Virus record (IMG/VR): IMGVR_UViG_3300045988_154156
Length of the DNA: 64,000 bases
Source: a virus
Direction: 5' to 3' (one strand)
A program made the translations under genes and the position numbers. Positions 10,745 through 63,780 of this stretch are shown here, piece by piece (position 1 is the stretch's first letter; each line of letters opens with the position of its first letter). Below the pieces are notes generated by a model. The model did no database searches and had not been told where the DNA came from. It worked only from the letters and a program-made list of their open reading frames with translations.

Positions 10745-10820
10745 TATGTCAAATATCTTAATTATTAATTTTGATTTAGTATTAGAATAGTATATTCCAA
10801 TTTTAAAAAATATTAATACA

Positions 10821-11282: not shown

Positions 11283-11287
11283 TTAAT

Positions 11288-11548
11288 ATGATAGATAATT
11301 CAATGCTTGATTCATCTTTAGTTGCTATGTTAAATAGTAATATGTTTTTAAAAGATGAAAATTTGATGAATACATTAAGAGGTAGTGTCGCAGAAACTAT
11401 TAAAAAGGTAAATAATGAATTATAGGATTTAGACGGCAAAATTGTTACTAATTCAATTAATCATCAAATGCTTGACAATAAACTTAAAAATTTTGTACGC
11501 GATATAAAATAGGTTTGTGATCGCTATTTAGATAATTGCTATTATTGA
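11288..11548 (+). CDS. Hypothetical protein (about 86 aa, 2 TAG)
   Basis: ATG 6 nt after GGAG; frame continues through TAG at 11423 and 11510 to TGA. Confidence 0.4.
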
Positions 11549-11573
11549 TTTTTTCACAAAATTATGTTATAAT
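11545..11573 (+). promoter_or_regulatory. Sigma-A-type promoter TTGATT-N17-TGtTATAAT upstream of dnaE
   Basis: -35 at 11545-11550; 17-nt spacer ending in TGT; TATAAT at 11568-11573; 30 nt before the dnaE ATG. Confidence 0.65.
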
Positions 11574-11603
11574 ATTTATAGAAATGTAAGAAAGGATAAT
11601 TAA

Positions 11604-16164: not shown

Positions 16165-16232
16165 TCTATAAGAAAAACCATATTTAGTAGACAGCTTAAA
16201 ATTTTAATACTAAATATAGTGGAGGAATATAA

Positions 16233-29743: not shown

Positions 29744-29746
29744 ATA

Positions 29747-30709
29747 TTATCCTCCTTCCTTATTTATAGAACTAAAAGCTAAACACCCGCCCTAACAAGA
29801 TAAATTATTAAATTTTTTACAATTTTTACATTTATCATTTTGTCCGTTAGCTTCTCTTTTAGGATAGATTGTTTTAAATAAAAAATAATTTGAAACTTCA
29901 TTAATATTATCAAACTAATGCAAATCTATTAAACCATAAGCGCCAAAACAACAAGTTGCTTTAAAATCCGGAGTAATATCTATAACTGGTTTACATAAAG
30001 TTTTCCAATGAATTACATTTTTTTTTAAAAAAGCTAAATCATCTTCTTTAAAATAACAAGCAGGTATCATATTACAATCAATGCGCAATTCAATATTATT
30101 TTTATAGGCTAACTAATTTAATTCTAATAATTGTGGGATACCATTATTGTAATATTCATCTTTATCTACTTGACTATATTGGCAAGTAGGAGCAGCATAA
30201 CTAATTCTTAAATTATTTTTTTTATATTTTTTACATAATTCAATTATATAATTAAAATCCTATAAATCTGGGTATATATTAATACCAAAATTAATTTGAT
30301 TTAATAGCTAATTTTTTTCAAAATTATTTAAAGTTTCTATAATACTATTATAATTACTTTCTGACATAGTATTTGGAGCATTCAAATTTATTAAACTAGA
30401 TAAAGCAGAATGATTTTTAAAACTATTTAAATATTTGTCTAAATAAATCCCATTAGAAAAAATAGTAACATTTTTTAAATCATATAATTTATCAAAACAA
30501 ATATCTATATATTCTGCTAGGCAGGGATGTAAAGTAGGTTCTCCTCCTATAATACCAATTCTATTACAAGGAGTCTAATCTAAAAAATCTAATATAGTTA
30601 ATAACTATTCCTTTGTTATAAGCTATTTTTCTTCCTCTGTAATAAATTTATTAGCAAAACAATATGGACACTATAAATTACAATAATTTAAAAATGCAAT
30701 ATTAGGCAT
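29747..30709 (-). CDS. Radical SAM / SPASM-domain protein (about 320 aa)
   Basis: N-terminal CNL(TAG)CPYC (CxxxCxxC) and GIIGGEPTL. C-terminal Cys clusters TCCFGAYG…CKNCKKFNNLSC(TAG)GGCLAF. Overlaps the upstream gene by 8 nt. Confidence 0.7.
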
Positions 30710-31976
30710 TATTTATTTTATCTCCTTCTAATTTTTTTATTTCTTTTAAATTAAAAAAATTATTTTCTATTAAAATTTGCTTTAAAATAGGATTTATATT
30801 ATCATATTTTAAATTAATATTTTTAATTAGATCGTATAAAATATCATATAATTTTTTATTAAAAATGCAATAATCTTCATTGAAAGATAATTTTCCTGTA
30901 GAAAAATATTCTTTTATACATCCACCATAACAAATATCATAATAATCACATTTTCCTTTACAATGTGTTAAAATTATATCATCAATTTTATTAATATAAT
31001 CCTAATAAGTTGGTAAAGATATTAATTCTTCAAAAGAATTAATATCTCTAATATTACAAAAAATATTTTCTTTATTAACATATCCACAATGAGTAATATC
31101 ACCATTAGGTAAAATTACTATCCATTTACCAACACAATAAGTTGTATAGCATTTCCCTCTACGGCCTAATAGACATTTAATACGATTTGTAATTCCTTGA
31201 TCTTCAATAGGATTGTCTGTATCATATATCCAATACCTAAAATATTCTGTAATTAATTCTAAATCTTCTTCATTATCAATATCTATTAGCATATTATTTG
31301 AATTACTATCTAATAATTTTATATCTTTAATAAAATTCCCCTAAAAGCCATGAACATTTAATGTTTTTAAATATTCATAATTTTCAATTAAATCTTTTAA
31401 ATGGGGTTTATCATACACACATATAAAACCTTTATGAGTATTTTTTAAAATAGGTTCCATGGCTAAAGTAGATTGTAGTCCTCTAGTCTCAGTATTATAT
31501 ATACCATTATATGAAAGTCCATATTTTATATGATATTTTTCAAGTAATGGTAATTTATCTTCTAATAAAATTCCATTACTTTGTAAAGAAATAGGAAAAT
31601 TTAAATTATATTTTTGTTTTTGCTCAGATAAATATATTAATAAATCTTCTGGCAATAATAAAGGTTCTCCACCATGCCAAGTAATTTCTCGAATATGAGA
31701 ACCAAATTTAGTAAGAATCTAATCTAATAGTTCTTTAGTTATAATCTAATCTTTATATTCATATCTAATAAACTAATTTTCACAATAAGGACAATTAGCA
31801 TTGCATTCATAAGAAGCATGTAATAAAATTAATACATTATCTATAGTATGAAATGACATATCATCTACTAACTATAAATCATCTAATTTAGATAATAATT
31901 CATTTTTATATTTAACTTTATAGGGCTAAATATGATTATACTTTAACCATAATTTTTTTTCTTCTTCGTATGTCAT
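30702..31976 (-). CDS. Radical SAM / SPASM-domain protein (about 424 aa)
   Basis: CNANCPYC motif and WHGGEPLL. C-terminal CKGKCDYYDICYGGC SPASM-like cluster. ORFs 31341-31655 and 31002-31292 in the same frame, joined by TAG. Confidence 0.7.
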
Positions 31977-31981
31977 AATTT

Positions 31982-32203
31982 TTATCCCTCATATCGAATC
32001 AAAATTTTTCCATTCACAACAGAAGGCATAGATTCAGAAGTTGGAGAAAAAATAAACATATCATTAGTTATAACTTCATTAGCTGATGTACCATTTGTGA
32101 CAGATTTTATTTTAGGGTTAGAGCTATTAATAGCACTTTTAAATAAATCAACACTATTATCATCATCAACATAAATTGCTCTTAATAATTTAGGCTCACT
32201 CAT
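31982..32203 (-). CDS. Small protein (73 aa) immediately upstream of the rSAM pair; candidate precursor or accessory protein
   Basis: Intact ORF; RBS GGAGGT; no TAG. Confidence 0.5.
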   Translation of the reverse strand: MSEPKLLRAIYVDDDNSVDLFKSAINSSNPKIKSVTNGTSANEVITNDMFIFSPTSESMPSVVNGKILIRYEG

Positions 32204-32216
32204 TTAATTTACCTCC

Positions 32217-32759
32217 TTAATAACTGTTATTCACTAAACCATTAACATAAGTATAAACTGCTCTTGCCGTTGGAACTTGACTATCTCCAGAACTTGAATT
32301 TATTACTGTGACTACTGGAAATGTAGTTCCTCCCGAGGATGATGAATCTCCATTATTATTACTAAGAGATAAATAAGGAAAACAAATAAAATTAAAAATA
32401 TCTCCAATTCTAGTCTTATAATTACTTCCCACTAAATTAATTTCAGTTTTATTTGTATTTAAAGTATAATTTTCCATTTTATTTAATAATAAACCATTCT
32501 AAAATACTAATAATTGTTTTTCATCAATTATTTCTATTGTATTAGGAATGGGAATAGTCTAAGTTATCTCTGATATAATTACTGTTTCATTTATTAAACT
32601 TTTATAAAATAATCCTTGAGAAATAGCTGTTTGTAGATCATAAGTAGAGCCGTTTATATCAATATAAACGGCTCTACCAAGAGTCTACGGGAAAATAGGA
32701 TTTTTATCATTATCATGCTATTCTGTGGTCTATAACAATTTAATATATTCTTCATTCAT
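32217..32759 (-). CDS. Hypothetical Ser/Gly-rich protein (about 180 aa)
   Basis: ATG overlaps the TGA of the upstream giant gene; 6 TAG; ends …AVYTYVNGLVNNSY*. Confidence 0.45.
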
Positions 32760-35700
32760 TTTGTGTTAGCCACCTTCCATTATAATTAACTTGAAAATCT
32801 TTAATTAATTTCCATTCATTATTTATTTTAACATAAGTATCTTTAATACGATACCATTCACCATTATCTTTTATATATTCATCAGTTGGGCCATCTAAAA
32901 CAGTAATAATTATAACTCCATCTCCATAATTACCAATTCGTGTATTTAACTAATCTGGCTATAGAATTTTTTCCTAACCAGTTTTAGAAATAGTATCTGA
33001 TAAATAATAATTTGGTGTTAATAAGCATCCAGAAGGATAATTAACCGCAGTAGAAGAAGTATAAACATAATTTGAACCGCCTCCACCGCCGCTACCCAAT
33101 TGGCTTGTATCAGTAGTGTAAGTTCCAGCACCGCCATACCAGCCACCACCACCAGCGCCAGAAACAACACCAATTCCAATAGCTCCACTTTTTATAGTTA
33201 TACCATTTCCACCAAATCCAAAGCCACCATAACAGTCTAATTGAGTAGAATAACTATTTGACTAAGTATCTTTTATCCAATTATTATTTACACCAGTTTG
33301 ATTTCCACCATAACCACCACTAGTAGTACCACTATTATATAAAGTAGCATTTAAACCTCCACCAGCACCGCCTTGGTATCCTTTATATCCACCTTCTGAA
33401 CCGCCACCGCCAGCGACTATTACTCTAGCATAAAGAGAATTAGAACCAATTCTTATATCAGTTCCTCCACCACCAGCAGGATAATTTTGACGTTTTCCAC
33501 CGCCATTGAATCCTCCAGCAATACCAGATCCTCCTACTCCAAACCATATAGGAGTAGTTTTAGTTAAAGTTAATACGCCAGATGTATAACCACCTCTATT
33601 ATTTCCAGTACTATTATCGCTATAATAATTTCCAGAAGCAATTCCACCTTGAGCACCCCAGCATTCTAGTTTATAACGTCCAGGAGGAAATGAAAATGGT
33701 CCTATTACTGCGCCATTTGGCGTTTCAAAATTGCCCATAAAAGTACTAGTCTAAGGAATAATAATCTATTTTCCCTTTTTAATAACACAATTATAAGGAG
33801 ATGAAATTACTTTAACTACGATACTTTTTGAGATATGCGCATAATTGCTATCATTATTATTATTTACAGTAATCGTAGCACGACCAATTTTATTAGCTTG
33901 TACAGTAATCCCTCGACCTTGATTATCACCAGCAATTAAATCTCCTATTGATACTATTGTATTATCATCTGATGCAAATGATAAGTTACTATAATTACCA
34001 TTATACAATACTGCTAAATTAACAGAATTTTCAACAACAATATAATGAGGATCCTAAATCTATAAATATGAAGTAGCAGGATTTATCTGCCACTCTATAG
34101 TTTTATTGCTAGTTGTTCCATCTGACCATTTAGTATTTGTAGTATCTATTAAAGAAAGAACCGTTGTATAATTTCCTGCATTAGAAGCTGAAGTTGTTCC
34201 ACCATTTATTGAATAAAGAATATCATAATCAGAATTATCATATAATATATCGCTAGCAAAATACCATGTATTTCCATTATATTGAATAGTTGTCTAAGGT
34301 TCAGGGATTAACACTGGAGTATATGATAAATTCTCATAAGTCATTGTAAAATATGGAATTCGTTTTGTTAAGCCAGAAATCTAAGTCTAATCTGGACTAT
34401 AACAATACATATATATTAAATCTCCAGCTTTTAAAGCAACCTCAAAAGATACAGTTCTTTGTTCCTAAGTAATATAATAATACTAAAAATTATTTCCATT
34501 TATCTATATACTAAATTGACTCATCCAATAAGAACCTATATCATCAAGATTTACTTCTGCCCCAAAAGTAAATTTAATTTTTACATTTTTCTTTACTCTG
34601 CCTCGATAATAAGCATAAAAACCAGTAAGAGGAGTTTTATTAGTTTCATATCTAGATGTATTAGAATTATAATAAAAACAATTATCATAATCACTAATAT
34701 TTTCAACACCTTCATCAACATTTAACTAAGTAATACGCACATAACCAGTACCATTATGTCCCGTTTCAGATGAACCTGTTGGAGAAGTAAATGAAACATT
34801 TCCTCCGATAGTCTAAGCATTTTCAAGATAATATTTACTATCTAATAAACATCCAGATGGATAACTAGTAGCAGTTGATGAAGTATATACATAACCGCTA
34901 CCTCCTCCGCCGCCTTGATTATCAGCTCCAGTTCCAGAAGAAGGTGGAGAAGTTAAATTGGAAACAGTTAAACCACCATACCAGCCGCCGCCACCGCCAC
35001 CACCATCATAAGCATGACGTCCTTGACCAAAACCTCCTCCTGAAGTTTGACTTCCTCCAGCAGCACCACCAGTACCACCTGATAGTCCTCCGCCATAACC
35101 GACTGAATCACCACTATCTTCTCCGCCACCTCCGCCGCCACCGGCCACAATCACACGAGCATAAAGAGAAGTAGAATTGATACGAATATCAGAAGCACCA
35201 CCACCGCCACATCCTGGTTCTGAGCTACCAGATCCCCAAGCTGATCCACCACCATTATATCCTCCTGAAGACAAAGATCCATATCCAACAGCTCCAATTC
35301 CACCACTATAGCAATGTAATGTAGTAGGTCTTAATAAAGTAAGATTACCATAAGAATACCCTCCTAGTCCTCCAAGACCTGCGGCTGAATTACCATCTTG
35401 TTGTCCTCCTCCTCGAGCACCCCAACATTCTAATTTATATTTACCAGGATTAAATTTTTTGCTATAAGATCCTGAACCGGAAATATTTAAATCATTAGAA
35501 ACATATCCAATTGATAAAACAGTAATGCGTACATAGCCATTACCACTATGACCAGTTTCAGAAGCACCAGTAGGTGAAGTGAATGATGTATTACCAGCAA
35601 TAGTATTTCCACTTGTTAAATCGTATTCATTTTGGTATACGTTAAAGCTATAATATCCGCTGCCGCCTGCATTTTGTTCTCGATAAGTACTATCATTATC

Positions 35701-36786
35701 ATTATAGCCAGTCTAGGCACCACCGCCATACCAGCCACCGCCGCCTCCTCCAGCTCCGTATCTATAATTAGTGCCCTAAGTAGTACTTGCTCCTTGACCA
35801 AATGCTCCTCCACTACCTGCTTCATATCGAGTAGAACGATATGTACTATTATTACAATAGCCAGTCGCTCCTCCACCATATTTTAAATCATCATGTAATC
35901 CTGCGGCTCCACCACCACCGCCAGCAACAACTACTCGCTAATTATAAGAATCTGTTCCAATACGAATATCAGAAGCGCCACCACCACCGCCGCCAGAAGT
36001 ATAAATATCCTACCACCAACGACGTCCGCCAGATCCGCCACCATTAAATCCACCAGCATTAGTTCCTCTATCAGTACTGTGAGATGATTGTCCTTGGCCG
36101 CCAGCATAACAATATAAAGTAGTATGAGCCTACTTTAAAATAGCTATCTAATAACTGTATCCGCCTTTGCCACCATCATAAGTTGGAAAAACACTAAAAT
36201 TAGCCTAATCATATGACGGAGAACCTCTAGTAATTGTAACTGCAACACTTTCGCCAGAAACAGAAGCACTGCTATCTTTAGTATAGGTCATCATTACTTC
36301 ATCATCTACATTTAAATACTTAGAATAAGTACCATTATTAGTACCGCTTACAGCACTTACGACTGTAGTTCCACCCACTGTTAAAGTAAATTTATCAAAA
36401 TTCTATTCTGTTGTATATGAATATACAAACTAATAATAACCCGCTGTTACACAAGTTAAAATTGTCTGAGCAGTACTACTATCCACAGCTAGATTATTAG
36501 CAGACCAAGTTCCATTAGTATCTGGAACAAAATGATAACTTGAAATAGCTCTAGAAAAATAAGTAGAAAAATTATTAGAAGTAATATTTGTATTATAATT
36601 TATACTACTTGGATTATTGGTACTAGTATAACCAGTTCCTCCTTGAGCACCCCAGCATTCAAATTTATACTATCCAGCAGGTAATTGAACAATTTTTTTG
36701 TTTCCGCTATAAGGACAATTTAATATGTCTCCTGCTCTTAAAAGATAATACTTTGGAATCGAAGAAGTTAAATCATATGTTGCCAT
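32752..36786 (-). CDS. Giant glycine-rich tail fibre/adhesin (about 1,344 aa) built from 4-5 repeats of a poly-Gly module (…KxECWGAQGG…ASDIRI…YARVIVAGGGGG…GGGWYGG…SGYVYTSS…YPSGCLL…ETGHNGNGYVRITV)
   Basis: All long minus-strand ORF fragments (33262-33738, 33766-34008, 34813-35274) are in one frame with ATG 36786 and TGA 32752-32754. Repeated motif blocks were read directly. GC-rich GGN codon runs generate spurious ORFs in other frames. Confidence 0.55.
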
Positions 36787-36789
36787 AAA

Positions 36790-37398
36790 TCAATTCTCCC
36801 TTACTATCCAAATATCTCCATTTTTGCCTTCATTATTAGTAGGAGCTGAAGTAGATACTAATATTGGGCGATAATATCTATTAGTAGAACTTATTGGAGT
36901 AGTACCAGCCGTATATTCAATTGGATTATTAACCATTTTAACTACACCAGTTATTTCATTGTTACCGTTTTTAGTAATATAATTATTTAATTGTGTTGGT
37001 AAATCATTAATTAATAAATATCTACTTAAAATAGTATTTAATTCTGCTTTACTCACATACTCACCATCATTTAAAATTTCACTAAACTACTCTATTGGAT
37101 TAGTCTATAATACTCCTTTTTCAGGCTAGATTTCATAAATACCAGCGTTATCTGTCTCTTTTAATAAAAAATCTGCCTTATTAGCATTCAACTATATGCG
37201 GTATTCTTTAATATTTTCTTTAGTTAAAGTCGCTCCATCTTTAAGTGGACTATCAATAAAAAAATTACCCGTATCAGGTGAAAAATAAGCCCATCCAGGG
37301 TTGAAAGGGACTGCTAATTCTTCCTGCTAAGTACTTTCATTAATTTTATATTTAAATAGATCCTCTTCATTTCCAGAATTTATTTTAAATAATGCCAT
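36790..37398 (-). CDS. Hypothetical structural protein (about 202 aa)
   Basis: RBS AAAGGAGA; ORF 36790-37056 in frame with ATG 37398; 4 TAG. Confidence 0.5.
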
Positions 37399-37430
37399 AA
37401 AGAATCTCCTTTCAATTTTATTTATATAAC

Positions 37431-37509
37431 AAAAAAAATGGGAGAGGATATACCTCTCCCATTTTATTTATATAACAAAAAAATGGGAGAGGATATACCT
37501 ACCTCTCCC
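37431..37509 (-). terminator. Tandemly duplicated intrinsic terminator (two copies of GGGAGAGG-ATATACC(TA)-CCTCTCCC followed by ATTTTTTT, each preceded by the same GTTATATAAATAAAAT spacer)
   Basis: Two about 40-bp direct repeats, each containing an 8-bp GC stem with a T-run on the - strand, downstream of gene 37609-38229. Confidence 0.7.
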
Positions 37510-37608: not shown

Positions 37609-38229
37609 TTATAATACCAACCAATAAACATCTAATCCACCATCATTACCAACATATCCTTCTAGGCGAGATAGACGTTCCCAAATCTACTAAACAACCT
37701 AATCATCATCAACTACATAATAATCTTCTTCTTGTGAAATATTATCATAATTTAAACGATTATAAACCTTAATTACATCAGGCTAAGTATTTAAATTAAA
37801 CATAAGATTATTTGTGTTTTTTTCAATATGATAAAAAGTAATCATATATTTCAATAATCCGGTCTTTTTAGTAGCACTATAATTTAAAACCCAAGGAAAA
37901 ATAATTTTATCTTTCTTTGTAACTAAATCATAATAAGGAACTGGATAAATACGCTTTTCATTATCAGCATTAATATAACTTACAATACACATCATATTAC
38001 TTAAATCAACTAAGCCATGATACCTATTTACTTCAAAATAAAGTGTCTCAGCAGCATGATCGCCTTCAATAGTAACATAATTATTAGTATTCTCAATTTT
38101 TTTAGTCTAAAGATTAATTTTTATTAATGCTTCATCTTCTGGGCTTGGTAAAGATGGATATTTAATTGGAAAATTTTCATCTTCTAATTGGTATAATAAC
38201 TGTTGATAATCGGCAGGATTAGTTATCAT
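37609..38229 (-). CDS. Hypothetical protein (about 206 aa)
   Basis: ATG at 38229 (AGGTGAGATTGT upstream); contains ORF 37783-37995; about 5 TAG; TAA stop. Confidence 0.45.
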
Positions 38230-38242
38230 ACAATCTCACCTC

Positions 38243-39964
38243 TTATCCAAGACTAACTTTATTAGTACTCTTAGATTTTATTGCGCCCTTCTTAATAGTT
38301 ACTGTATAAGCAATAGCATTATTAGTATTAGCGATAGGAACTATAATAGTATTATTAGTAATTGCTTGAGATATACTATAAACGTTCTTACTGGTATCAT
38401 CATAGAAATCAACAATAAATTCACCAATAGAACCCAACTCATTAGTAGTATTTCCAACAGTAATAACATAATTAGTACCATCAATAGCACAAGAAGCGTT
38501 AATATTTATATTAGATATATCTAAGCAATGAGTAAATGGATAAATAGAGTTAAATTCTTTACTATCTCTATTCTTTACAGCAACAACCTTTGGTTTATAA
38601 ACTCCTTCATCAGAAGTTAATACCAATGTATTTGTATTATTCTCAATTAATGTACTATCTTTATACCAACTATAAGTAAATTCAATACCAGCATCTATAT
38701 TAGGTTTCAACTAAATAGTCTTTTCACCGTAATAATAAGCACCACTTTCATCATTAGAATCTGGGGCTGGACTATAATTAAATGATAAATCACTTGGTAA
38801 GCCAGTAACAATAACAGATAACTCATTATTATTTATAATTTGACTCTTATCATTTGCGGTTTTACCATAGGCAGAAACTGTATAAGTACCTTTTTCAGTA
38901 ATTTCGCAATAAGCAACTTTCAAATACAGATTATCTTTTTTCTCTTCAAAGCTGGCCGCATCTAAAATACCACTTACGTTATTATAATCAGTACCATTAG
39001 CTTCATAATAACTTAATTTACCATTATAAGTTGTATCAGTAAAAATACTATTTTCACCAGTGAGTTTCATATAATTATACTTTTGTGCCTCACTAATTGG
39101 ATATGCAGTTCCATTATCAGTGCGAACCCAATCATATATAATATTGGTACTTTCAATATTATTCTATGTATCATTATATGCTAAAGCATAAATTTTATCA
39201 CCAGTGATATATGCTTCTTTTTCATTCTTAATACCAGATAAGAAAGCAATAGTATCTGCTACGCCGCTACCAATACTCTTAGTAGAATCAATTAAAGATT
39301 TTAAATAATTATTCATATAATCAACTGGCTCTGCAGTTAATATATTTTCATCAATATCTAAACCTTTACTAATTGTCATTTGAGCTGGTAAAGTATTTAA
39401 CATATATTCATACTCTCTATCATTCTTCTTTTTAAAGAATACAATAGAAAAATATACTGTACCAGGTTGTGCGGTTATTGAATTATCAATAGGCCACTCA
39501 AAAATAATTTTTCCACTTTCACTAGTGATATCTCTAAAACGAGATTCAGAGAAACCTTTTATACTATCATCAACATACCATTGAACGAAAATACGGATTC
39601 CATTTTCAGCTAAATCCTATATATCAAAATATCTATCTATTCTAAACCAAATAGTTTCAGCCATATGATCTTTAGCGACATTTAAAAATACTGTCTTACC
39701 AAAATCATTACCCAACTTAATACGTCTTGTATTCGCATCTATATCTATAATTTGCTCATCTACTGGAACACGAATTACAAATGGATTAGTTGCGGCCATC
39801 TTTACAATACCAGTTATATTTTCAAAATAATCAGATATACTATTAACTTCTACAAGTTTACCTTTGTCATTAGTAACATTATTATCTTTAGCCAATTTAT
39901 TGATAGTATTAAAAAAAGTATCCCAATTACCATGCTCTTTATTCGTATCAATTCTAGTAATCAA
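38243..39964 (-). CDS. Virion structural protein with Ig-like C-terminal domains (about 573 aa)
   Basis: Four ORF fragments (39617-39964, 39164-39403, 38711-39070, 38243-38710) are all in the same frame, joined by TAG. TTG start after AAAGGAAGAG. Confidence 0.55.
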
Positions 39965-39983
39965 AACTTATCTCTTCCTTTCT

Positions 39984-40031
39984 AAAAAAATTAGGGTAGA
40001 TAGATTTTACCTTCTATCTACCCTAATTTTT
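39984..40031 (-). terminator. Intrinsic terminator (TTAGGGTAGATAG-loop-CTATCTACCCTAA) with T-runs on both strands
   Basis: 13-bp stem flanked by AAAAAAA on the 5' side and TTTTT on the 3' side; downstream of small gene 40062-40262. Confidence 0.7.
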
Positions 40032-40061: not shown

Positions 40062-40262
40062 TTATTCTTCATACCATTCTTCTAATTCATCTTCTGGAAC
40101 AAGAGGAGATACAGTATAATATTCTTTACCATCTTTAGTAACTCGTTTACCATAATCAGCATATAATCTATACATTTTCATAGCAGTAACCCCAGGTAAA
40201 TGAACACCAGTCTCAATCGTTCCATTAGTACCTACATATCTATAAATTGTATCTTTTTCCAT
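40062..40262 (-). CDS. Small protein (66 aa, no TAG)
   Basis: RBS TAAGGAGAA; intact ORF; followed by a strong terminator. Confidence 0.55.
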   Translation of the reverse strand: MEKDTIYRYVGTNGTIETGVHLPGVTAMKMYRLYADYGKRVTKDGKEYYTVSPLVPEDELEEWYEE

Positions 40263-40273
40263 AAAAATTCTCC

Positions 40274-43200
40274 TTATCTTACAATTGGATCAAAAGTATA
40301 TTGACAACCACTATTCTAAATATTAGAAATTACTTCATTCATTGCTGCCATAACAGAACTTTCAAATTGAGCACGATAATAATATCTAATAGTACCAGTA
40401 TACTTATTGCCCTTAGTTGGACCAAATGCAGTAGATTGAGTTAAAGAATTTGGCATACAAGCAAACTAACTTAATGGATATTTATTAGTACCTAACTGAA
40501 TTAATAAAGCACCAGTTATTGGATATACATTATCAACTTTGCTGCCAATAATATGCATACGACCAAAAGAATTACTATTTAAATTAAGTACTCCGTCTTT
40601 ACATCCTTCTAAAACGAAAGATTTAGTTTTTCCACCAATTTGTGTTTCCTAAAAAGCATAACTACCAATATATAAACCTTTTAAGGAAGAGGAATAAGGA
40701 ATACGTTCAACCTAATTTAAATTAGTTTTATAGAATGTATAATCACCTATTTTTTCTAAACAATCACTAAATTCAAAATACTATAAATTAGTTGCACCAA
40801 AAAATGTTCTACTATCTATTGAAGAAATTTTATTACTCAATTTTGGACTAAAATAAATACCAGTAACATTAGTATTCATAATAAAAGCTGTTGCACTTTG
40901 ACTGCCACTAGTATTTTCAATACGAGTAATAGATTGTCCATTATAAGTTGATGGTAATGTAATTTTTCCTCCTAAATACTTACACATATCAAAGAAATGT
41001 ATATAGTAAGTATTATTAGAAGTATCTTTTCTTATTTCATAATATTGATGATTATCATCATTTTCTAAGATATTATCATAAACATTAACTAATTCTCCAA
41101 TAGCATAGAAGGTACGATCAGCATATGCTAACTGTTTATTTAAATCAATTCTTACGCCATCTGGACTATCAGCAGCCCAGCCTGTTTGTTTCCAAGTTGT
41201 TTCAAAAGAAATCAATCCTTGCGCTGGACGTGTTTCATCCGTATTAAAATCATCTACGCTGTTCTTATAGTAATAGAAATTATTAGGAACGGTGATTCTA
41301 GTACCGTATAAATAAGTTCCAGTTACCTTAGAAATACCATCACCATTCACAAAAGTAATTTCATATGATTTACGCTCAAATCCTGCTGTAAATACATAAT
41401 CTAATTTATTTGGATTTAATGTTAAAGTATTCCAATTATTTGAAGTAATCTAATCCTTCTTATTTTCGTCTTTATCAACTGTAATTATGAAATTATTATT
41501 TTCATCTTTCCAGCCTTTAAAATCATCAATAGGACGCTTTTCCTACAAAGTACCAAATGAAATATAATTATTCTTTGTTTTATCTGTAGGATCATCAAAG
41601 AAGGTTTGAGAAGAAGAACCATCAGAATTCTTAATTAACTTCTAAGTTTTTAAGATTTCTTGAGCAATAACATTTCCATCTTCATCTGTTTCTTCAACAA
41701 TAAATTTTACAGAGTATTCCTTATTAACATTTTTTACAAAAATTGTTAAATTAGGATAAATGGATTGAAGTTCATTTTGAATAATATGCTCATCAATAGC
41801 TTCATTATTTTCAATATATACAATACCTGTAATATTAGGATTTTTCTAGTTTATACCTTTAAAAGTATTATCTTTATTGTAAATCTAAGATTCATCATAA
41901 ATTTTCTTTAGTAAGTCAGTGTAATTTACTATTTTACTATGGATTTCTTCGTAGCCATTTACCGTTTCATCAAGGTAGTAAATTAATCCATTCTTAATAT
42001 CTAACGTAGTAATTTTACTAACTTCATTATATGGGATTACATCTAATTGAAAATGTCCGTTATCTTTAAAGTATTGAACATTATCAGGATCTAATTCAAT
42101 TTTATCATCATTCAATAATCTATATGGACTCCATTGGACATCAACAAAATTAATTTCACAATCTTTTAAATTACTCTTTTTACATCCAAGATAATAGCGT
42201 CTTAATAATTCATAACTATAATATCCAAGATTGCCGCCTTCAATATCCATAGTTTTGATTTTAGTTTCAATTTGGTCATCATCTTTATCTGTCAGATTCT
42301 AAATATATAATCCTTTATTTTCATCTGCTACAACTAATCGTCCTGTCGTCGGATTAAGTGTAGGATTAACATAAGTAGTAATTAATTTATTCAATAAATT
42401 TGCTTCAATTAAAGTTAAATAATTAGTTTCACTAGTTAAATAAAGCGTATCTAATGCTACGCCTTTTGCAAATTCTACTCTTGGAATATTAGATCCAGTA
42501 TTTCTAAAGTTTTCTAGCTTTTCACTCTTAGTTAAATTTAATGCTGGCTAATCTTTCTTAAAAGTAATATTACATAGATTCATTTCTTTTAATAAAGGCA
42601 TACCAGTTTTAGGATAAGACCAATCATTAACATCTTTATTAAAATAAGCATATGGCTAACCATCTTCGATAGCAAGACCATCATAACCCAATAATAAATC
42701 TGTCATTTTATCTGCTTTACCTTCCATAGCAAATTCTTGGAAATATAATTTACTTAAATCTCCTAAAGATTTCATCTAATCAGTACCATAAATATAATAT
42801 AACTATTCACGATAATTACCACTAGACATAATACCTTTCTTTAAATCAGGAGCTGTAAATTTAACTGGACTTAATCCATTATATTTCTAAGAAGCAAAAT
42901 TTGCTCCATCAGTACCAACAGTAACATATGAATTACGTGCTGGCGACATTTCAATCCAATATTCGCCGTCAAAAATATGATTCTTTTCACCATATTCAAT
43001 ATTATCTTTCCAATATTGAGCATTAGTAACTAAATTAGTCATACCTTGAGTATTAGTACCTTCAATCCATTTATCAGAAGTATTCTTTGGGTTATTCGCA
43101 GAAATACGACTTCTAATAAAATTACCACCACTACCACTAGCATAACCATCAACAGTTAACCAAGAATCAATATAGTTAAGACGATTAGATAAAAATTGCG

Positions 43201-46200
43201 CGCGATATAAGTTACGGTCACCCTATAAAGCATAAAAATATTGGTCAGTTTCTACCGCATATTTGCCTTCATTAGTTAAACGACCAAATATAGTATTTTC
43301 AGCGGCTGAATTAGTAGGAATAATATATTTATATTCTTCATCTAAATTTAATGCCAATAATGGGCGGTCACCCTTCACAGCATAACTATCAGGGAACACT
43401 GAAGGATCAGTTTTATACCATTTATCAACAATCGCACTTTTATCACTATTGGTATCAGAGTCTTTAGCAAAAATCTAAGTGACTTTAGATGGAGTATAAG
43501 ATCCATTACTAAATCCCATTAATTGCTTATATTTATCTACAATTTTGCTCTTAAAAAATTGATAAAAATTATTCCACAATACACTATCATTAGTAGAAAA
43601 ACTTCCATCAATAGTGGCATCAACGTAATATTCAAATGATGGAATACCAGTATTATTAATACCTAATTGAGTATCAATATCATAGAAAATTGGATACCAA
43701 ATATAATGTTGAATTCCAGTCGCTTTTTCGATATTATTCTTTTGTGGACCCCACGAAGCAAACATCGCATTTTTACCACGAGAGTCATAACATTCAAAAA
43801 TTTCAGTCATTAAGAAATAAGTTGCTAAATATTCAATATTAAAATAATTACTTAACTCATTCTTAAATTTTGCTTGACGATATTCTTTACAATCTTTAGT
43901 ATATGTTACTCCACCATAAGTAACAGGAGCCGGTAATAACCATCTATCATCAATATTAGCTTCATTCTGAATTAACTAATAATAAGATTCATTGGCATTA
44001 AATCTATCATTACTAATAGTATAAATATTATTTTTTTCATCTTGTAAAATATAGTATATACCAGTCTTATAAACTTTATTTTCATTATTAGTTAAAGTAA
44101 TTAAATTATAATCTATTCCATTTAATTTATAATACTTTATTTCAGAATTAAATTCATCATTAGAAATTCCATATATATCATTACCCGCATCATTAGTTCC
44201 GGTAACTACATAATATTTTCCTCTTTCGTATAAAGCTTCTGCTAATCCATCTACTAAATTATATTGACCAATAGAAGGAATTTCATATAAAATTCCATCA
44301 AAATCAATACTACAATCTAAACAAGTACTCCAAACCCAACTAACAGCATCCTCCCAGTTAGACATTAATGCTAGTAATAATTCACGAGAGGTATTAGCAT
44401 TAGTACTATCAAATTTAACAGATTCCTAACCTGGATTTGTAATAATTATTTCAGTAGATTTTTGACCTGTAGTTTCATCAGTAATTTTATTAACTTGGAT
44501 TCTGTCTGGAGCTGTATTAGCTATACCATTAACCCAGTCAGGTAAATCATCAGCGTAACTACCTGAAGCAGTATCTTTACATTCGAATAAAGCTTTTGAA
44601 ATTAAATCATCATTAGCATTATATCTAACTTCAAAAGAATCGGCTACCATTGGAGCACCATGAGTAGTTACCCCATTATTATTATCCATAATTGGAGGTC
44701 TAAATGATAACTTATAACGATTCCAAGGATCGCGGAAAGAACAATAAGTTCTTGAGTTATTCTAGAACTCCCAACATTCAGCAATATCTCTTACTTTTGG
44801 TTTTCCTTCAATCTAATTCTATAAAACTTTTTTATTGGGCTTAAATCCAAAACATTCATCAGAGCCTTTGTCCAATAACATATTATATTTACCAATATAT
44901 ATAATATCACTTTCATTATTATATTGATTATTATTATCTGAAGGCCAATGGAAAGCTAAAACAGGGAATCCTTTCATGGAAGTTCTATAGTCATCAGTAT
45001 TTCCATATAAATCATAGTTATCAAAAGAATCTTTATAATCACAAATCGGATGCTATGAATAAGTTTCATTAACCAAATTAGCAAAACCTCGGTTATAATC
45101 ACCAGAAGATTCCATAAAATCTATTTTTAATGTAAATTTAGTTGTACCAACTGTCTCATTATCCATATAGAAAAATTCAATAAAGCATTTGCTATTTTTA
45201 TTTAAAGTATTATTAGTTTTATCTTCTTCATATAATTTTTCAAATGGACCTTTATTCATAAACATTACATTTTTACATTTAGCTTTATAATTACGACGAG
45301 GATAATTTCTAGAAGAAGTTCCCTAAACCTAAAAAGTACATCCATCAATAGTAGTAGTAAAACTAGGACAATGATGCATATAATAATTTTGGACAGGAGT
45401 GTAAATAACTTCTTTAGTTACACTATCCAAAATCGGAGGCCATTTTACAGGATCTAAATTTACTATATTATCTAGTTCACCACGAGCATAGGCAGCATCC
45501 AAAGGTACATTTATAAATTCTAAAGTACCCGCTTGCGCGCCTTTATCTTTAGAATAAGGCAATCTATTCTAAGTATTTTCATTATTATTAGCAGTAGTTC
45601 GCAAAATAATATATGGCATCAAAGGCTCATCTTGATGAGCGCTATTATAAGCTTTCATTCGCTGATAAGAAAAAACTTCATCTTGAATATCAGCTCGAGA
45701 TTCATATAAATCTTTCTAATCCCAATACTTAATATTTTTTTTATCAAAAGCATAATTCTATACAACTTCATGAATAGATAAATCTGTGTCATATACTCTA
45801 ATACTATACAAATCAATATCACAAGTATTAGACATAAATTTAATTACATCAGAATTAATACTCCACATTGAAGAACTACTACGACGAGCAACGCTAGTTA
45901 AAACACCATTCATAAAAATTTCTAATAACTTAGAGTTGCCACCAACCATGCCCTCTTTTGCCTTTGTATAAACAAAAGTTAAATTTAACATCTTATCTTC
46001 AACAAAATCAACAGATACAGTTTCTTCTTTACCATTTGCAGTAAATGTAGCGTCCTATGGACTAAAATAAATACCCAATGGATCTTCTTCTGAGCCATAA
46101 GCGCAAATTAAATTATTTTTTAAATCAAAAATCTACTCTAATCTATCATAAGTTAATTCATCATAAGTTGGAGCTTCTGGATGTTTAGGTAAATATTCCT

Positions 46201-48049
46201 AAGTTAAGAAAGTATCATAATTTAAATATGTACTCTGATTTCGGAATTCTTTCCAAGCATCATCATCAGTCCAATCCTATTTAGAAGAATCTGCTTCATC
46301 ACTGGCTTTATAACGAGTATATTTAGTAATAACCTTAGTATAATTCTAAGGATTTCTAATTTTAAATTGAATTTCAATAGTATGCGTAGAGGTAGCACTA
46401 CCATTATCAAACTCCAATGAACCAATAGGAATAGAAATTTCAGCACCATTACTAATTCTTAAACAAGTTACATTATTTTCATCAAATAGCCAACCATTAT
46501 TATACCAGTTAAAATTCTTAAACGTTGCACGCTTACCATTAATTTCAAGAGTTTCTCTGCTTAATTTACTTTCTGAATTTGAACGTCCAGTAGCAACAAA
46601 ATTAACTTTTAAATCACTTTCACGCGCTAACTTCATATCACGTAATGGATCAACTGAAATATCAAAAGTAAAATTACGAGAATAATCATACGGTTCTGTA
46701 CCAACTTTAATAGTATAATAAGCGCTATCATTTACAGCAAGATTAGTAATTTCCCAATATTCCCATTCAGCATTATTAGAAGTAATTTGTCTTGTACCAA
46801 TTAATACACCATTTTTATATAAATAGACTGTGGCAATTTGATTATTTGGATCTAATACTTTAAAAGGAATTCTAATTGTTTCATAAGTATAGTATTCTGT
46901 TTTAAAATTACCAGTCCAAATTAAAGGAATTAAGCTCGTTCTATCTCTAATAGCAATTTCTTTAGTAATAAATGGCGTTCCATTACCTTTTATTCCATTC
47001 TAAGATAAATATAATTTTGCTTTAATAGTATGTTCTCCATGAGTAAAAACATCTTTTAAAGTAGTCGCTTTAGTTGAATTTAAAATAACTGTATCAGCAG
47101 TAATAGTAAAATCATCATTAGCTTGATTAATGTTATCTCCTTTATATTCTCTATTCAAAACTAGATAATCATCAAAATATACTTCTATGGTACGTTCTAC
47201 TCCACTTGACATTAACCATGCTGTTCTCACTGAACCATCATCAAAAGGATAAATATTAGAAAAATTATCTTCCTTCCAAGATAAATCCAAAGCATGTTTT
47301 GTAATAAATACAGTACGCTTAGTTGGCGCTAAAAATTTATTATTTTCAGGGTCTGGATTGTTAGTAATATCAAAAGTAATTTGATGAGTAGTTGAATCTC
47401 TTAATACTTCTGTTAAATCAAATGTTTGAGCAACATTATGATTGAATACAACTCTATCACTTTGCCAAATTACTTCATATCCTTCACCAGATTTATTTTG
47501 CTAACTAACTGTTATTTGACCTTCTACAGACTCTGCTTGCGGCACGTTATCTATAGTACGGCACTTAACTAAAACAGTCACACTAGCCTATTCATTATTT
47601 AAAATATCTTGTGTACAATTTAAAGTTAAAGAAGTAGAACCTAGTACTTTTTTTTCAGAGCTTTCGTCACTTCCTCCACCCATTGTTAATTTTTCACATT
47701 TTGCACATTCTTCTCGATCTTCATTTAATCCAGTTCCTATAATGCGATAAAAGCATCCATCTGAATTTAAAATTAAATCATTTATATGATAATTTGTTGT
47801 CGATAACTTACCAATCTCAATTAAATAATCAATAGGATTCTCATCTATATCATATTCAATTTCTGCGTTATCATCAGTACCATATATTACCTATACGCCA
47901 CTAGAACCAATGGGTAATTTATTCTCGTCGGCAGTATCTAAATAAATGCGGCCAGTATCAGTGGCAACATAAAAATATCCTTCAGTCTAAGGAAAATTTT
48001 TAATCTTTTCTTCTAGGCCTTGTACTGGACGGAAATGAATTTTAGACAT
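40274..48049 (-). CDS. Giant virion protein (about 2,591 aa), putative tail/baseplate adhesin with C-terminal BspA-type leucine-rich-repeat-like region
   Basis: Eleven minus-strand ORF fragments (47000-47290 through 40781-41350) share one frame with ATG 48049 (RBS AAGGAGTAAAAT) and TAA 40274-40276. C-terminal repeats such as …ISSIDSRTFFGATNL(TAG)YFEFSDCLEKIGDYTFYKTNLN… resemble LRR_5. About 60 in-frame TAG. Confidence 0.55.
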
Positions 48050-48071
48050 ATTTTACTCCTTTCTATCCTAT

Positions 48072-48111
48072 AAAAAAATTATGGGGAAAGAAGAACACCT
48101 TCTTTCCCCAT
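48072..48111 (-). terminator. Strong intrinsic terminator (ATGGGGAAAGAAG-loop-TTCTTTCCCCAT followed by T7 on the - strand)
   Basis: 12-13 bp GC-containing stem; A-run on + means a T-run on -; located after gene 48170-49858. Confidence 0.8.
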
Positions 48112-48169
48112 AAAAACATTCTTCTATATAAGAAGAAAAAATTATAAGCAAAATTAATTTATATTGGCC

Positions 48170-49858
48170 TTAAAAGCTACCCCATTGTAATTCAACATTA
48201 ATTTTAGCAGCTTCTGTACTACTACCATTAACACACTCAACAGCTAATGTGTTACTATTAATTGTAATAGGAGCTAATTCTGTATCTACTTGATCTACTT
48301 TAACTACTGGAGTTAAAATATTACCATTACCAGCATGAGGAGCAGCTTCAATTATAGCATGAGTATCTTTTAATGTATAAGTTTTAGGAGTAACTTGTAA
48401 AATATGACCATTACTATCAATTTCAGTAGGATCTTGAATAGTAATTTCTAAACTACCATTTGAACCATATTCAAGAGTTTTAGAAATAGCAGTAGCATTT
48501 GATTTCTTTGTTGCTACATGTTTTAAGGTAACTACTTTTGTTTTATTAGTAGTAGCTGCTTCAACTCGCAAACTATCATCGGTAGCAATTTCGAAAGTAA
48601 GAAGTTCATCACTTAATCCTCTAAAAATTGAGAAATTAGGATTAGATTTATTAGCTCCTAATGTATCACCAATTTCAACTAAAGGTTCATCCGCCGAAGG
48701 CACATAGACCCAAGTTAATTGATCGCTAGGAATTAAACCATTTGCCCCTTCTTCACCAGAAGCAATAAATAAATCTCCTTGACGTACCTTATAACCATTA
48801 TATAAACTCTCATTGGCATCATTATAAATAAATACATCACCATTATGCAAATTAGAAGTAGTATAATTTGTATTTTCAAACGTAAATACTCCATCAGCAA
48901 TTCTAGTAATGGCTCCACGATAAACCATTGCATTTAATGTACGATTAAGATTATTAATTTCCTCTTTTGTATATACATCTAAAGTAGCCGCTCCATCTGT
49001 AAAATGGACAGAAACTGGATTATCAACACCATAAGTAATAAGAGGATTAATGGTCTAAGAAATTTGTTGGCCTTCAACGGCACTACCAGTAACAGTAAAT
49101 TGAAAACCTTCTCCTGCATTATCAACAGTAAAATCTTCAACTTTATTCTTTAAAGTTAATTTATACTAATTAGATTCTGCATTAACAGTTTCAAAATTTA
49201 AATTATCATCTGGAATAATAGCAACAGTAGTGCCGCTATCATTTTCAACACCAATATTTTTTAAAGTAATATTTAATTTTTGATGAGTTGTATCTTCAGC
49301 AGAAACATTTTCAATAGAACTCTATAATTTATAATCAATACCATCTAATTTAAAAGTTACGATATTATTAATAGTATCTACATCAAGAGTAATATGTTCT
49401 CCACCGACAAGAGTATGAACTTGAGTAATTGAATTTCCAGCAGTATCAGTAATAGTCTAAGTAATTGTCGCTTTATCTGCTTCCGGATAACCTACTTCAA
49501 TTGAACTAGTTTCACTACTTAGCGTAGTGTCAACATTAGTCTAAACCCAATTTTTACCATTACTAATACAAAGAATATTATCCTTACTAACATAGTAAAA
49601 ATTACCTGCATTTAATGCATTAGGAGTTGGTAAGTTTGCGGTAGTTTCAACATTCGTAATACCCTAATTAACAGGGGCAATATTAGTCGAATTAACACCA
49701 TAATATAATCTACCTGGTTTGCCTAACGAATCAGCAGTTGCTCCAGCAGTATCATCAATTACTAAATAAAAAGCACCAGGCTAATATTGACCAGCTGCAC
49801 ATAAAGCTTCAAATTGGGCTTGAGTGCCTTTTAAAAATTTTACAGCTTCACTCATTTA
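48170..49858 (-). CDS. Tail fibre protein (about 562 aa) with N-terminal motif FLKGTQAQFEAL…YLVIDD shared with the next gene
   Basis: RBS AAAGGAGAG; ORF 48170-48928 in frame with ATG 49858; about 9 TAG. Confidence 0.55.
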
Positions 49859-50641: not shown

Positions 50642-52753
50642 TTAACTAGTTGTTGTAGAATTATCTTCTAATATTTTAATTCTTTCTGCTAATGTATCAA
50701 TATATGCACATAATTGTTGAATAGTTTTACTGTCGTTATTTACAGTAAATTTATCAGTTGTCTAAATATATGTATTTGGAATTGAATCTAATTTCGCATT
50801 CCATGCAGTTCTCTCTTCTGGAGTAATATGGATATTACTATTAGTATGAGTGTCTAAAGCGCTCTATAAAGCACGACTATTAATATTAGTAGTTAAATTA
50901 GTTTCTAAAGTAGATAATTTATTAGTAACTTCTGTATCCCAATCACTAATTTTAGCATGGGTTAATGATGGGATATCATCTGCTTTTAATGATGTTCTTG
51001 TTACTTTAATTTTACCTTTTTCTTCTGACACAGCAGTAACAAATTCTTTACTTATCGCCTAATCTTCAACTTTTAATGTATCAATCTTATTATTTACATA
51101 ATTTTCTGCCGCGCTTAAATTCGAAGCTAATTTAGTTGAAATTGCGTTAATACTATCTTTTAAGGTAGAAGTACTATTAAGCCCCAAATCAGCATTTGTA
51201 TAATCTTCAACACCGATTTGTAAATTACCTAAATAATCTTTTATTTCAACAAATTTTCCGTTTTCTGGAGTAAAAGTTAAGCTTGTAATTACATTACCAG
51301 TATCATCTGATTGATAAGAGCCTTTTGGGATAGTAATATTTCTAGTCTCGCTCTAAGATATTACATGTCCACAATCATCTACAGTAAAGCTTGGAATTTC
51401 TATTGTTTCACCAAATTTAGGAGTCTAATTTGCATTTGGTGCTATTGTTTTATTATCTAACTTAATGGAAGTATGGAATAATTTAAACTATGTTAATTTA
51501 TTATCAGCATTAGGAATAGCTTTATAATTAATCCAACTATCTCCAAGAATTTCTGCCGATTTAATAATTTTATCTCCAGTATCAGCATCTTCTTCTGGAG
51601 AAGCATATAATAATTTACTAGCTTCTAAATTAACATTATTAAACTTTTTATTTAATCTATTTAAAGCGCCAGAAACATTATTAGGATTATAATTTAATTC
51701 TCTTTCTTCACCATAAAGTAAGTCATAAACGCGACAAGCAGCATTTCCAAGACCAGGTAATTTAATTACAAGATTTTTAATATCATTAGTTTTATATTCA
51801 CCTGTTATACCGTCCTATTCAACATCATAATAATAAGGATAATTAGTAGTACCTAAAGTATAAGTAATACTATTTTCTTCATTACTAAGATGATGAATTT
51901 TTTCATCAAATCCAGCAGCATTAAAATCAATATTCTAAGGATCTAAATTTAATAAAAAATTAGTAGGCACTTGAATACGATAATTAATATTTGTACTATT
52001 AATTTCATCAATAGAAACATACGGAGGCCAATAAGGAGTTCCATCAGGATTAGTATAAACAGAATAATATTTTCTATCAGCTACAAAAGGTCCAGTGTCT
52101 TGTACATAAGATGTTCCATTAAAATAATAATACTTATTAGGCTAATAAGTATCTTCGTTTAAATCTATTAGAGTGTAAATATCTTGTGGTGCTTGAGGTA
52201 AAATTTCAAATACTGGAACTATAGTATTTAATTCAGCAATCTATACATATTTTTCTTCATTATTAATAAATTGTTTAATCCAAACTGTTGAATCATATCC
52301 ACGTCCATATTTTTGGTAATCAATATCATAATTTAATTTATAGGCTTCGTCATCTGGGGTATTTTCTATTACACTATATCCAGATAATTTTTTCCATATT
52401 TGATTACGTGAACTATTTTCTAATACGCCTTGATAATAATCATATCGAGAACCAGAACTAAAATTTACTCTTGCTTTTACTATTTTACGTTCAACCCAAG
52501 GAACAATATATATACTGTCTCTTTTAGTAGGATCACTATAAAAAGTATTAATACGAGTAGTTAAAGAACCATCAGTATAAACTTCTTGAATATCATTTAA
52601 AACAGTAGCACCATATTCAACTAACACATAACGTCCTAAAAATACACCATCACCAAGGGCACAATCAGCATCCATATCACGTCTATTTGCATAAATTTTA
52701 TCAAAGGAGAATGTAGTCTTTGATGTATTTGTTATATTACCATAAAAACCCAT
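50642..52753 (-). CDS. Tail fibre/structural protein (about 703 aa)
   Basis: RBS GAGGAGGGA before ATG 52753; ORF 52241-52783 in frame; continuous to TAA 50642-50644; C-terminal coiled/beta-rich region; about 10 TAG. Confidence 0.5.
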
Positions 52754-52754
52754 A

Positions 52755-53102
52755 TTATCCCTCCTCGTATAAAATATCCACAATTAAATAAGCATTGGTA
52801 TTTTGATTAATTAAATTCATGGAAGCTTTATCAAATTTAATAGAAGTTATATAAGAAATTCCTTCTAAATCTAATTCATAAATACCAGTACTTCCAACCA
52901 TAACACTATTATCACTTTCATTTAAATAAAACTTAACTCCAGGTACTGTCTAAATACCTAACTAAGTAATTAATACATTATTACCATTAATTTTAAATGC
53001 GGAACCATTAATTAATTTAGTCATACCTAAAGAAGTTCCACCGGGATAATTTTTTACATTATTTTCATTGTAATAACGAATCTATTTAATTCGCTTTGCC
53101 AT
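52755..53102 (-). CDS. Small structural protein (about 115 aa)
   Basis: RBS GGAGGAAC; 3 TAG; TAA overlaps the next RBS. Confidence 0.45.
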
Positions 53103-58291: not shown

Positions 58292-58453
58292 TTATTCCTC
58301 CTCTTGTTTTTGTTGTGTATTATTCTAACGATAAATGAATTCTTTTAAACTTTTAATACATTCTCCCATTAAAATAGTATCTTCACCTTTCGTAGAAATA
58401 CAAATTAATGTGTTATATAAAGCATTTAAATAATTTAAATCCTCTTTATTCAT
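58292..58453 (-). CDS. Small protein (53 aa)
   Basis: ATG overlaps the upstream TAA (TAATGA); 1 TAG. Confidence 0.35.
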
Positions 58454-63699: not shown

Positions 63700-63780
63700 A
63701 ATAATCCCTCCTTTTACTCATTATTCTATAAATTAGTGAAAAATTGTCCTACTTTATTAAATATATCTACCCAAAAAGAA

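Follow-up and report, generated by a model that had tools for sequence, protein, structure and literature searches.

The stretch of viral DNA analysed here, the 64,000-nucleotide IMG/VR record IMGVR_UViG_3300045988_154156 (hereafter the window), carries on its minus strand a giant gene of tail-fibre type at 40274–48049. Read from 48049 down to 40274, the gene begins with ATG, comprises 2,591 sense codons and ends with TAA (40274–40276). In frame within it are 39 TAG codons, which stand for Gln, but TAA and TGA are absent until the terminal stop. On the same strand, the remaining two frames have 180 and 503 stops. As the DNA is 29% G+C, a frame that runs for 7.8 kb free of TAA and TGA rules out chance. 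This bears out the original prediction, made from the sequence alone, that a single frame of about 2,591 codons is broken only by TAG: no in-frame TAA or TGA was found within 40277–48046. The same prediction held that all substantial open reading frame (ORF) fragments share this frame, which is true of ten ORFs of at least 70 amino acids (aa) called under the standard code (table 11), but not of a further one at 46222–46449 (75 aa). The pattern extends beyond this gene. When TAG was treated as a sense codon, ORFs of 100 codons or more, both strands taken together, grew in total length from 34.6 to 67.0 kb across the window, while recoding of TGA gained little ORF coverage; among the 42 large ORFs of the window, 32 end with TAA, 10 with TGA and none with TAG.

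For comparison of the frame, 26 orthologous genes were taken from ENA and IMG/VR contigs. In all 26, the first TAA or TGA of the frame comes after 2,417–2,651 codons, of which 4–40 are TAG, with about 100–130 and 350–440 TAA/TGA codons in the other two frames. Among 5.8 billion proteins, a homologue search found one of 2,591 aa with 99% identity to the giant protein (28 substitutions, Q at every TAG position); public gene callers thus already yield the product of the single code-15 ORF. The search further brought up a colinear family of proteins of 2,100–2,960 aa, in which end-to-end colinearity holds from 99% to about 30% identity. In the standard-code Hankyphage (Bacteroides phage p00), the homologue is one ORF of 2,245 aa. 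A nucleotide search against 50,697 phage records gave no match. A separate observation concerns the orthologue L103 (IMGVR_UViG_3300035499_000343, 10001–17389), which is 47% identical, belongs to a phage of 37% GC and has 4 TAG codons in about 2,462; recoding in this lineage is little or incipient, and the lineage could help trace the origin of code 15.

Could the region instead hold two or three adjacent genes in the same frame, with some of the TAG codons acting as stops between them? Reading under table 11 does yield many fragments, and some public records split the gene into pieces of 77–237 aa. However, a Shine–Dalgarno (SD) match of at least 5 nt precedes only one in-frame ATG, GTG or TTG, namely the annotated start, and promoter-like sites in the region are at chance level (69, versus 62.2 ± 8.8 in shuffled sequence), so the check for internal promoters and ribosome-binding sites (RBSs) that the original prediction had proposed came out in favour of one gene. 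Moreover, the TAG sites are not kept as boundaries but exchange with CAA or CAG among the orthologues, TAG occurs within invariant motifs, no window gene terminates in TAG, and both L103 and the standard-code relatives remain single ORFs. Taken together, the orthologue frames, the sole SD-preceded start, the chance-level promoter-like sites and the single-ORF relatives lead us to reject a division into two or three genes, which is extremely improbable and effectively refuted by the frames, the RBS and promoter scan and the exchange of TAG with CAA/CAG. If the standard code held, the 39 in-frame TAG codons might be taken to speak for a decayed pseudogene or a non-coding remnant, and the same evidence applies to this reading. 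The absence of TAA and TGA over 7.8 kb at 29% GC, where the other frames have 180 and 503 stops, the strong protein-level conservation over about 5,000 clusters, the invariant motifs that the protein carries and the TAG-only pattern common to every gene of the window leave this reading practically no probability; it is refuted by a TAA/TGA-free frame here and in the orthologues and by TAG recoding across the window. Region 40274–48049 is a single real gene.

The amino acid assigned to TAG was read from a codon alignment of 13 sequences, in which non-identical codons were counted as partners. The results showed that the partners of the window's 39 TAG codons encode Gln in 40% of cases, followed by Lys (14%) and Tyr (6%), and that the relation is reciprocal, the window's CAA codons being paired most often with TAG (23%). 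The control codons AAA, GAA, TAT, TTA, TCA and TGG each align with their own or a similar amino acid. At Q909, within the conserved motif QGTSS, the window shares TAG with 11 relatives, whereas a further 67 loci, among them Hankyphage and prophages of the standard code, have CAG or CAA. These exchanges indicate that TAG is read as Gln, that is, genetic code 15, a code that has been documented in gut phages and validated by metaproteomics (PMC9523058; bioRxiv 10.1101/2021.08.26.457843). It is very unlikely that TAG stands for another amino acid, such as Lys, Tyr or Glu, or is read ambiguously. Such a reading could draw on the columns in which TAG pairs with Lys or Tyr codons, among them aa 2467, where three orthologues have TAT, but Gln is by far the top partner and reciprocal with CAA, the Q909 column holds nothing besides TAG other than CAG and CAA, and the proteomics of code 15 shows Gln (PMC9523058).

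TAG is not evenly distributed. Its density is 10.1 per 1,000 codons in the replication block and 16.9 in the tail block, and the lower use in the replication block fits the published gradient of recoding between early and late genes. Within the replication block (plus strand, 1–22700, as against the tail block on the minus strand at 23000–64000), the gene for DNA polymerase (Pol) III alpha has a single TAG in 1,332 codons.

The giant protein was divided into domains from profile matches, predicted models and family comparisons; all domains are encoded on the minus strand. A small N-terminal beta domain (aa 1–121; 47687–48049) is followed by a Gly-rich hinge at about aa 122–130. Even in distant members, which are about 25% identical over the rest of the protein, this domain keeps 32–41% identity, and it is presumably an attachment (anchor) domain. 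A likeness to the N-terminus of Mtd-type fibres found no support in Pfam and is not claimed. The N-terminus of a 202-aa neighbour (36790–37467, minus strand), PFNPGWAYFSPDTGNFFID, weakly echoes the N-terminal FPQTEGYFYVATDTGRIYLD of the giant protein (E ~1e-3 in a 15-protein database), and the likeness may be an attachment motif common to fibre proteins. About three beta-sandwiches resembling immunoglobulin (Ig) or fibronectin type III (FN3) domains occupy aa ~135–470 (46640–47647); the predicted model has a predicted local distance difference test (pLDDT) score of 79.5, and its Foldseek matches are tandem Ig/macroglobulin/FN3 arrays (E ~1e-10). A jelly roll of the laminin G (LamG)/concanavalin-A type follows at aa ~480–780 (45710–46612) according to the secondary structure of the model, with a helical insert at aa ~596–622. 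Two of 14 family members match Laminin_G_3 (best E 9e-6), and the jelly-roll model also matches the minor pilin PilC of S. sanguinis (7oa8). PHROG 14959/24896 span aa ~646–1070.

A CotH-kinase-like fold is predicted at aa ~890–1650 (43100–45382), split by a lineage-specific insertion at aa ~1110–1370. Beyond it lie an internal domain of classical leucine-rich repeats (LRRs) at aa ~1750–1900 (42350–42802), a middle region at aa ~1900–2340 (41030–42349) to which no domain is assigned, and a C-terminal module of BspA-type LRRs (LRR_5; 40277–41029, with the Pfam match at aa 2403–2469). Flg_new, the Listeria–Bacteroides repeat, is found in 3 of 19 family members, in P0082 at aa 1637–1692, positions that need not correspond to the middle region of the giant protein; the Pfam scan gave no Flg_new match in the giant protein itself.

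The BspA-type repeats that the original prediction had noticed are confirmed. LRR_5 is marginal in the giant protein (29.5 bits against a gathering cut-off of 27.7), while 13 of 19 family members match it (best E 4e-27) and the family profile of the module matches structures in the PDB with E values from 8e-23 (4fs7) to 2e-11. Comparison with the closest orthologue, which is 87% identical overall, showed identities of 90–100% over aa 300–2100 and of 64, 54, 56 and then 40% along the last ~400 aa; a second variable zone appears as a dip at aa 100–200. By this comparison, the LRR_5 module is the fastest-diverging part of the protein, and it is probably its receptor-binding tip. A repeat scan for diversity-generating retroelements (DGRs) found no pair resembling template and variable repeats that touches the giant gene (a reverse transcriptase was not sought outside the repeat scan), suggesting that variation of the tip arises from ordinary mutation or recombination.

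The most conserved part is the CotH-like core. In every pairwise comparison, aa 1400–1500 form the most conserved 100-aa block, and the residues G910-T911-S912-S913, Y916, N920, K975, D1422-x3-K1426-N1427 and D1457-x-D1459 are invariant down to about 18% identity, with Q909 at least 90% conserved. These residues include three motifs on the minus strand: QGTSS (aa 909–913; 45311–45325), in which Q909, like the nearby Q907, is encoded by TAG; DSRGKN (D1422-x3-K1426-N1427; 43769–43786), a candidate catalytic loop; and YDIDTQLG (D1457-x-D1459; 43673–43681), a candidate metal-binding motif. The latter two fall in the stretch equivalent to positions 156–221 of the Pfam CotH profile (PF08757), which 4 of 19 family members match at E <= 0.01, only P0084 (35.3 bits) exceeding the cut-off of 23.8 bits. 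Both LRR_5 and CotH had been named in the original prediction as domains to be looked for; LRR_5 was matched, whereas the giant protein has no Pfam match to CotH even at E <= 10. A CotH-type atypical protein-kinase-like fold of the core is nevertheless supported by the predicted model and the family matches. In the close orthologues P0003, P0005, P0009 and P0023, an additional insertion of ~85–95 aa occurs at a site corresponding to aa ~1008–1019 of the giant protein, in the N-lobe, implying that large insertions can be accommodated in more than one place within the CotH-like domain.

The kinase activity of Bacillus subtilis CotH needs D228 and D251 (PMC7821199). The spacing between these residues, 23, compares with 22–24 as read between the two motifs in the compact family member P0084. 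Searches of PDB sequences with the family (A1), core (A2) and 129-position catalytic (A4) profiles, and with P0084 by phmmer, never reached CotH, so the catalytic residues are not mapped onto CotH residue by residue. The invariance of catalytic-type residues argues that the role of the domain may be chemical rather than purely structural. We tentatively raise the possibility, which we hold to be less probable than not by a good way, that the core is an active kinase or related phosphotransferase on the tail fibres of thousands of phage lineages and matters for assembly or adsorption. If so, it would phosphorylate fibre or virion proteins during assembly, as CotH patterns the spore coat, or act at the cell surface during adsorption, and the family would amount to receptor-binding proteins that carry an enzyme, a class so far unrecognised though widespread.

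A different reading of the same residues would make the protein an enzymatically active effector, carried by the virion or injected, in which a CotH-type kinase phosphorylates targets of the host or the phage while substrates or partners are recognised by the LRR and Ig domains, rather than primarily a receptor-binding fibre. The support for the CotH fold, the invariance of D-x3-K-N, D-x-D and QGTSS, the position of the most conserved block and the agreement in spacing with the essential D228/D251 of CotH are what such a protein would lead one to expect. On the other hand, the domain make-up is that of a surface adhesin, the C-terminal tip is hypervariable here and DGR-diversified in relatives, as is typical of receptor binding, the gene occupies a tail-fibre position and the catalytic residues are not directly aligned to CotH. 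We therefore consider the effector reading unlikely, and it is in any case compatible with a tail fibre rather than exclusive of it.

We conclude that the gene is very probably a late code-15 gene of a gut phage of ~195 kb and that its product is a giant multi-domain receptor-binding tail fibre or adhesin. The assignment to this class draws on gene order, on the types of domain and on the variability of the tip. Receptor-binding proteins characteristically combine a conserved body with a tip that changes fast; the Ig-like, LamG and LRR domains are of adhesin type; the gene lies in a syntenic module with a neighbour that matches PHROG 1887 'tail protein' and with a Peptidase_S74 protein of 1.6–1.75 kaa, which upholds the placement in a virion (tail) module made in the original prediction; and two homologues hold tail-fibre positions. 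One is the Hankyphage ORF, which follows a 'minor tail protein', has a DGR variable repeat at its C-terminus and has been treated as a tail fibre (PMC12135933). The other, of 1,673 aa, is found in phage NatCom_3357 after the tape measure protein, Dit and an 800-aa protein and before holin and endolysin. In the mechanism we propose, the conserved N-terminal domain would anchor the protein at the tail tip or baseplate, the Ig-like array, the LamG-like lectin fold, the CotH fold and the internal LRR would form a shaft with possibly secondary binding sites, and the BspA-type LRR tip would bind the host surface. With 39 TAG codons, a full-length product arises only when TAG is decoded as Gln. The analogy of published code-15 phages points to a phage suppressor tRNA as the decoder, and this need would confine expression of the giant protein to late infection.

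Several points weigh against this conclusion. No tRNA genes were found in the 64-kb window or in 21 flanking loci of relatives, which cover about one third of the genome, and hence no suppressor tRNA; neither a suppressor tRNA nor a release factor was seen in the 64 kb examined. The decoding machinery is thus postulated from the analogy with code-15 phages already described. TAG also occurs in the replication genes (10.1 per 1,000), so that a 'late-only' switch is not clear-cut. The giant protein and its core segment, scanned up to E 10, have no Pfam match to CotH or Laminin_G_3, and both assignments draw on family transitivity and a model of moderate confidence (pLDDT 63.8). A terminator-like hairpin lies 30 nt upstream of the start and leaves no room for a promoter between. 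Finally, the placement of the protein in the virion is argued from sequence and gene order rather than from experiment or structure.

The hairpin in question (48079–48113, minus strand) has a 16-bp stem, a 3-nt loop and a following T-run (delta-G −22.4 kcal/mol), lies between an upstream 561-aa gene and the giant gene, and keeps its stem core in three orthologous loci; it is either a partial terminator or a 5′-leader stem-loop. The original prediction of the strongest terminator of the window followed by a canonical RBS holds in part: the hairpin is present and the SD sequence AAAGGAG (48056–48062, minus strand; kept in L001–L003) is separated by a 6-nt spacer from the ATG at 48049–48047, but the hairpin is tied for the strongest on the minus strand and a plus-strand hairpin at 2211–2254 is slightly stronger (−23.9 kcal/mol). 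Downstream, an ORF of 66 aa (40062–40262, minus strand) begins 11 nt after the TAA of the giant gene and has a GGAG RBS of its own. The ORF and its synteny are conserved in the orthologues, and it is possibly a co-expressed fibre assembly factor. A bidirectional hairpin terminator at 39990–40027 (−21.2 and −22.1 kcal/mol on the two strands) closes the two-gene unit, so that the giant gene and the 66-aa ORF are bracketed by terminator-like structures at 48113–48079 and 40027–39990.

The gene order around the unit is conserved and comprises genes for proteins of 959–963, ~770, ~115 and ~716–756 aa, the upstream gene (called 560 aa in L001 but 243 aa in L002 and L003), the giant gene, the 66-aa ORF and genes for ~470–505 and 206 aa. 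Scans of the neighbours at 48170–49855, 50642–52783, 38243–39967 and 37609–38235 against PHROG and Pfam gave no match. Also on the minus strand, a second very large tail protein (58453–63717; 1,633–1,754 aa depending on the choice of start, with 38–39 TAG codons) has at its C-terminus a Peptidase_S74 intramolecular chaperone domain, as fibres and spikes typically do, and is probably another of these. A 1,345-aa protein of the tail module (32752–36789, minus strand, 26 TAG codons) has three ALK/LTK glycine-rich domains (PF12810, E 1e-111), a domain best known from animal receptor kinases. Two adjacent radical-SAM proteins (Fer4_12/SPASM-like; 29747–30712 and 30702–31988, minus strand) lie inside the virion module and a third look-alike, seen by eye only, at 2311–3261 on the plus strand; they may be peptide- or protein-modifying enzymes. 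Within the gene at 28010–29746 (minus strand), which encodes a 578-aa protein without a family match, about four copies of a 24-nt tandem repeat (29313–29432) encode 'DTPYRDYD'. The plus-strand block at 1–22.7 kb is a replication module with DnaB, RecJ, a superfamily 1 (SF1) helicase, a DnaE-type Pol III alpha and NrdD.

Relatives of the giant gene, 23 of them in IMG/VR, occur on contigs of up to 191–197 kb. The source phage genome is about 191–197 kb and is neither crAss-like in gene content nor Lak-sized, contrary to the jumbo-phage or crAss-like scale originally suggested. SD-like motifs precede 36 of the 42 window genes. In GTDB, the nearest match (core identity 79%) is a contig of phage size (L006; CAMELE010000001.1, 163,874 bp) binned with an 'uncultured Mollicutes' metagenome-assembled genome (MAG), which is either a mis-binned phage or a hint of the host. 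The SD frequency and this binning are weak hints of a low-GC host of Firmicutes or Mollicutes type. As for the link to Firmicutes surface proteins drawn in the original prediction, the LRR is indeed of BspA type, but it is no proof of a Firmicutes host, since phages of Bacteroidota share this core with phages of Firmicutes.

The giant protein belongs to a very large family of phage proteins, which earlier work has noticed but which is unstudied. Its core reaches 5,010 representative clusters (50% identity) at E <= 1e-3 and 1,891 at E <= 1e-30, and nearly all of the best 150 core clusters are 2,100–2,900 aa long, so the size of the protein, which had seemed unusual in a virion module, is ordinary for its family. 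The core is also found in 'internalin-like proteins' of crAss-like phages, in gp353 of Bacillus phage G, in a Lacticaseibacillus phage and in ~178 kb Bacteroides DAC phages, as well as in 146 loci of bacterial genomes or MAGs from Bacteroidota and Firmicutes. The family, which spans phages of these two phyla, crAss-like phages, Hankyphage and phage G, is one of the largest uncharacterised families of phage structural proteins. The role of a kinase fold in a tail fibre is an experimentally tractable question that bears on the host range of gut phages. For annotation, code-15 phages need gene calling with TAG as sense, as table 11 fragments this 7.8 kb gene.

Both code-15 phages and the giant LamG and CotH fibre family are already known in outline. 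Like the code-15 gut phages described by Borges et al. (bioRxiv 10.1101/2021.08.26.457843) and Peters et al. (2022; PMC9523058), the phage studied here uses TAG as a sense codon, has denser TAG in structural than in replication genes and has a genome size within the range of the large recoded clades. The spore-coat kinase CotH of Bacillus (PDB 5jd9/5jda; PF08757) is about 10% identical, and neither the giant protein nor the family profile matches it by sequence; the fold is here embedded in a 2,591-aa adhesin of extracellular type and split by a large insertion. The CotH-family kinase domains of phages were noted as unstudied by Benler et al. (2021; PMC8008677). The C-terminal module matches BspA-type LRR surface proteins (LRR_5; PDB 4fs7, 4gt6 and PcpA 4cp6) with family-profile E values of 8e-23 to 2e-11, but those proteins belong to bacterial cell surfaces, whereas the module here is the putative tip of a phage protein. 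The crAss-like internalin-like proteins (cr60_1, cr113_1, cr52_1 and cr109_1), which are annotated as LRR proteins, and gp353 of Bacillus phage G share the catalytic-type core (tblastn E 3e-14 to 7e-4), with about 46% of the 281-aa core query aligned at roughly 29–31% identity.

The closest likeness in kind is to the Hankyphage fibre and to the 'category f1' of Wu et al. (2018; PMC5758913), DGR targets of ~2,000 aa with weak CotH and Laminin_G_3 motifs. These proteins, too, are very long (about 2,000–2,250 aa) and encoded after tail genes. The core of the Hankyphage protein is homologous to that of the giant protein (tblastn E 6e-11 over aa 1384–1629), QGTSS is present in the Hankyphage ORF (L004), and DxxxKN and DxD are common to the giant protein and the Hankyphage-like member P0084. 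Of the features of this class, a length of at least 2,000 aa, colinearity and a location in the tail module are all found in the giant protein, and the Laminin_G_3-like and CotH-like motifs are found at the level of family and fold only; a C-terminal DGR-targeted C-type lectin is replaced by LRR_5. The giant gene further differs in being TAG-recoded, its product is about 350 aa longer with an insertion of ~260 aa in the CotH-like domain, and the phage is ~195 kb rather than ~43 kb. Both proteins have a variable C-terminal tip for binding, a DGR-diversified C-type lectin fold in Hankyphage and a BspA-type LRR, with no DGR repeat pair near the gene, here. The family pairs a swappable binding tip, LRR in this phage and DGR-diversified lectin elsewhere, with a deeply conserved core of kinase fold.

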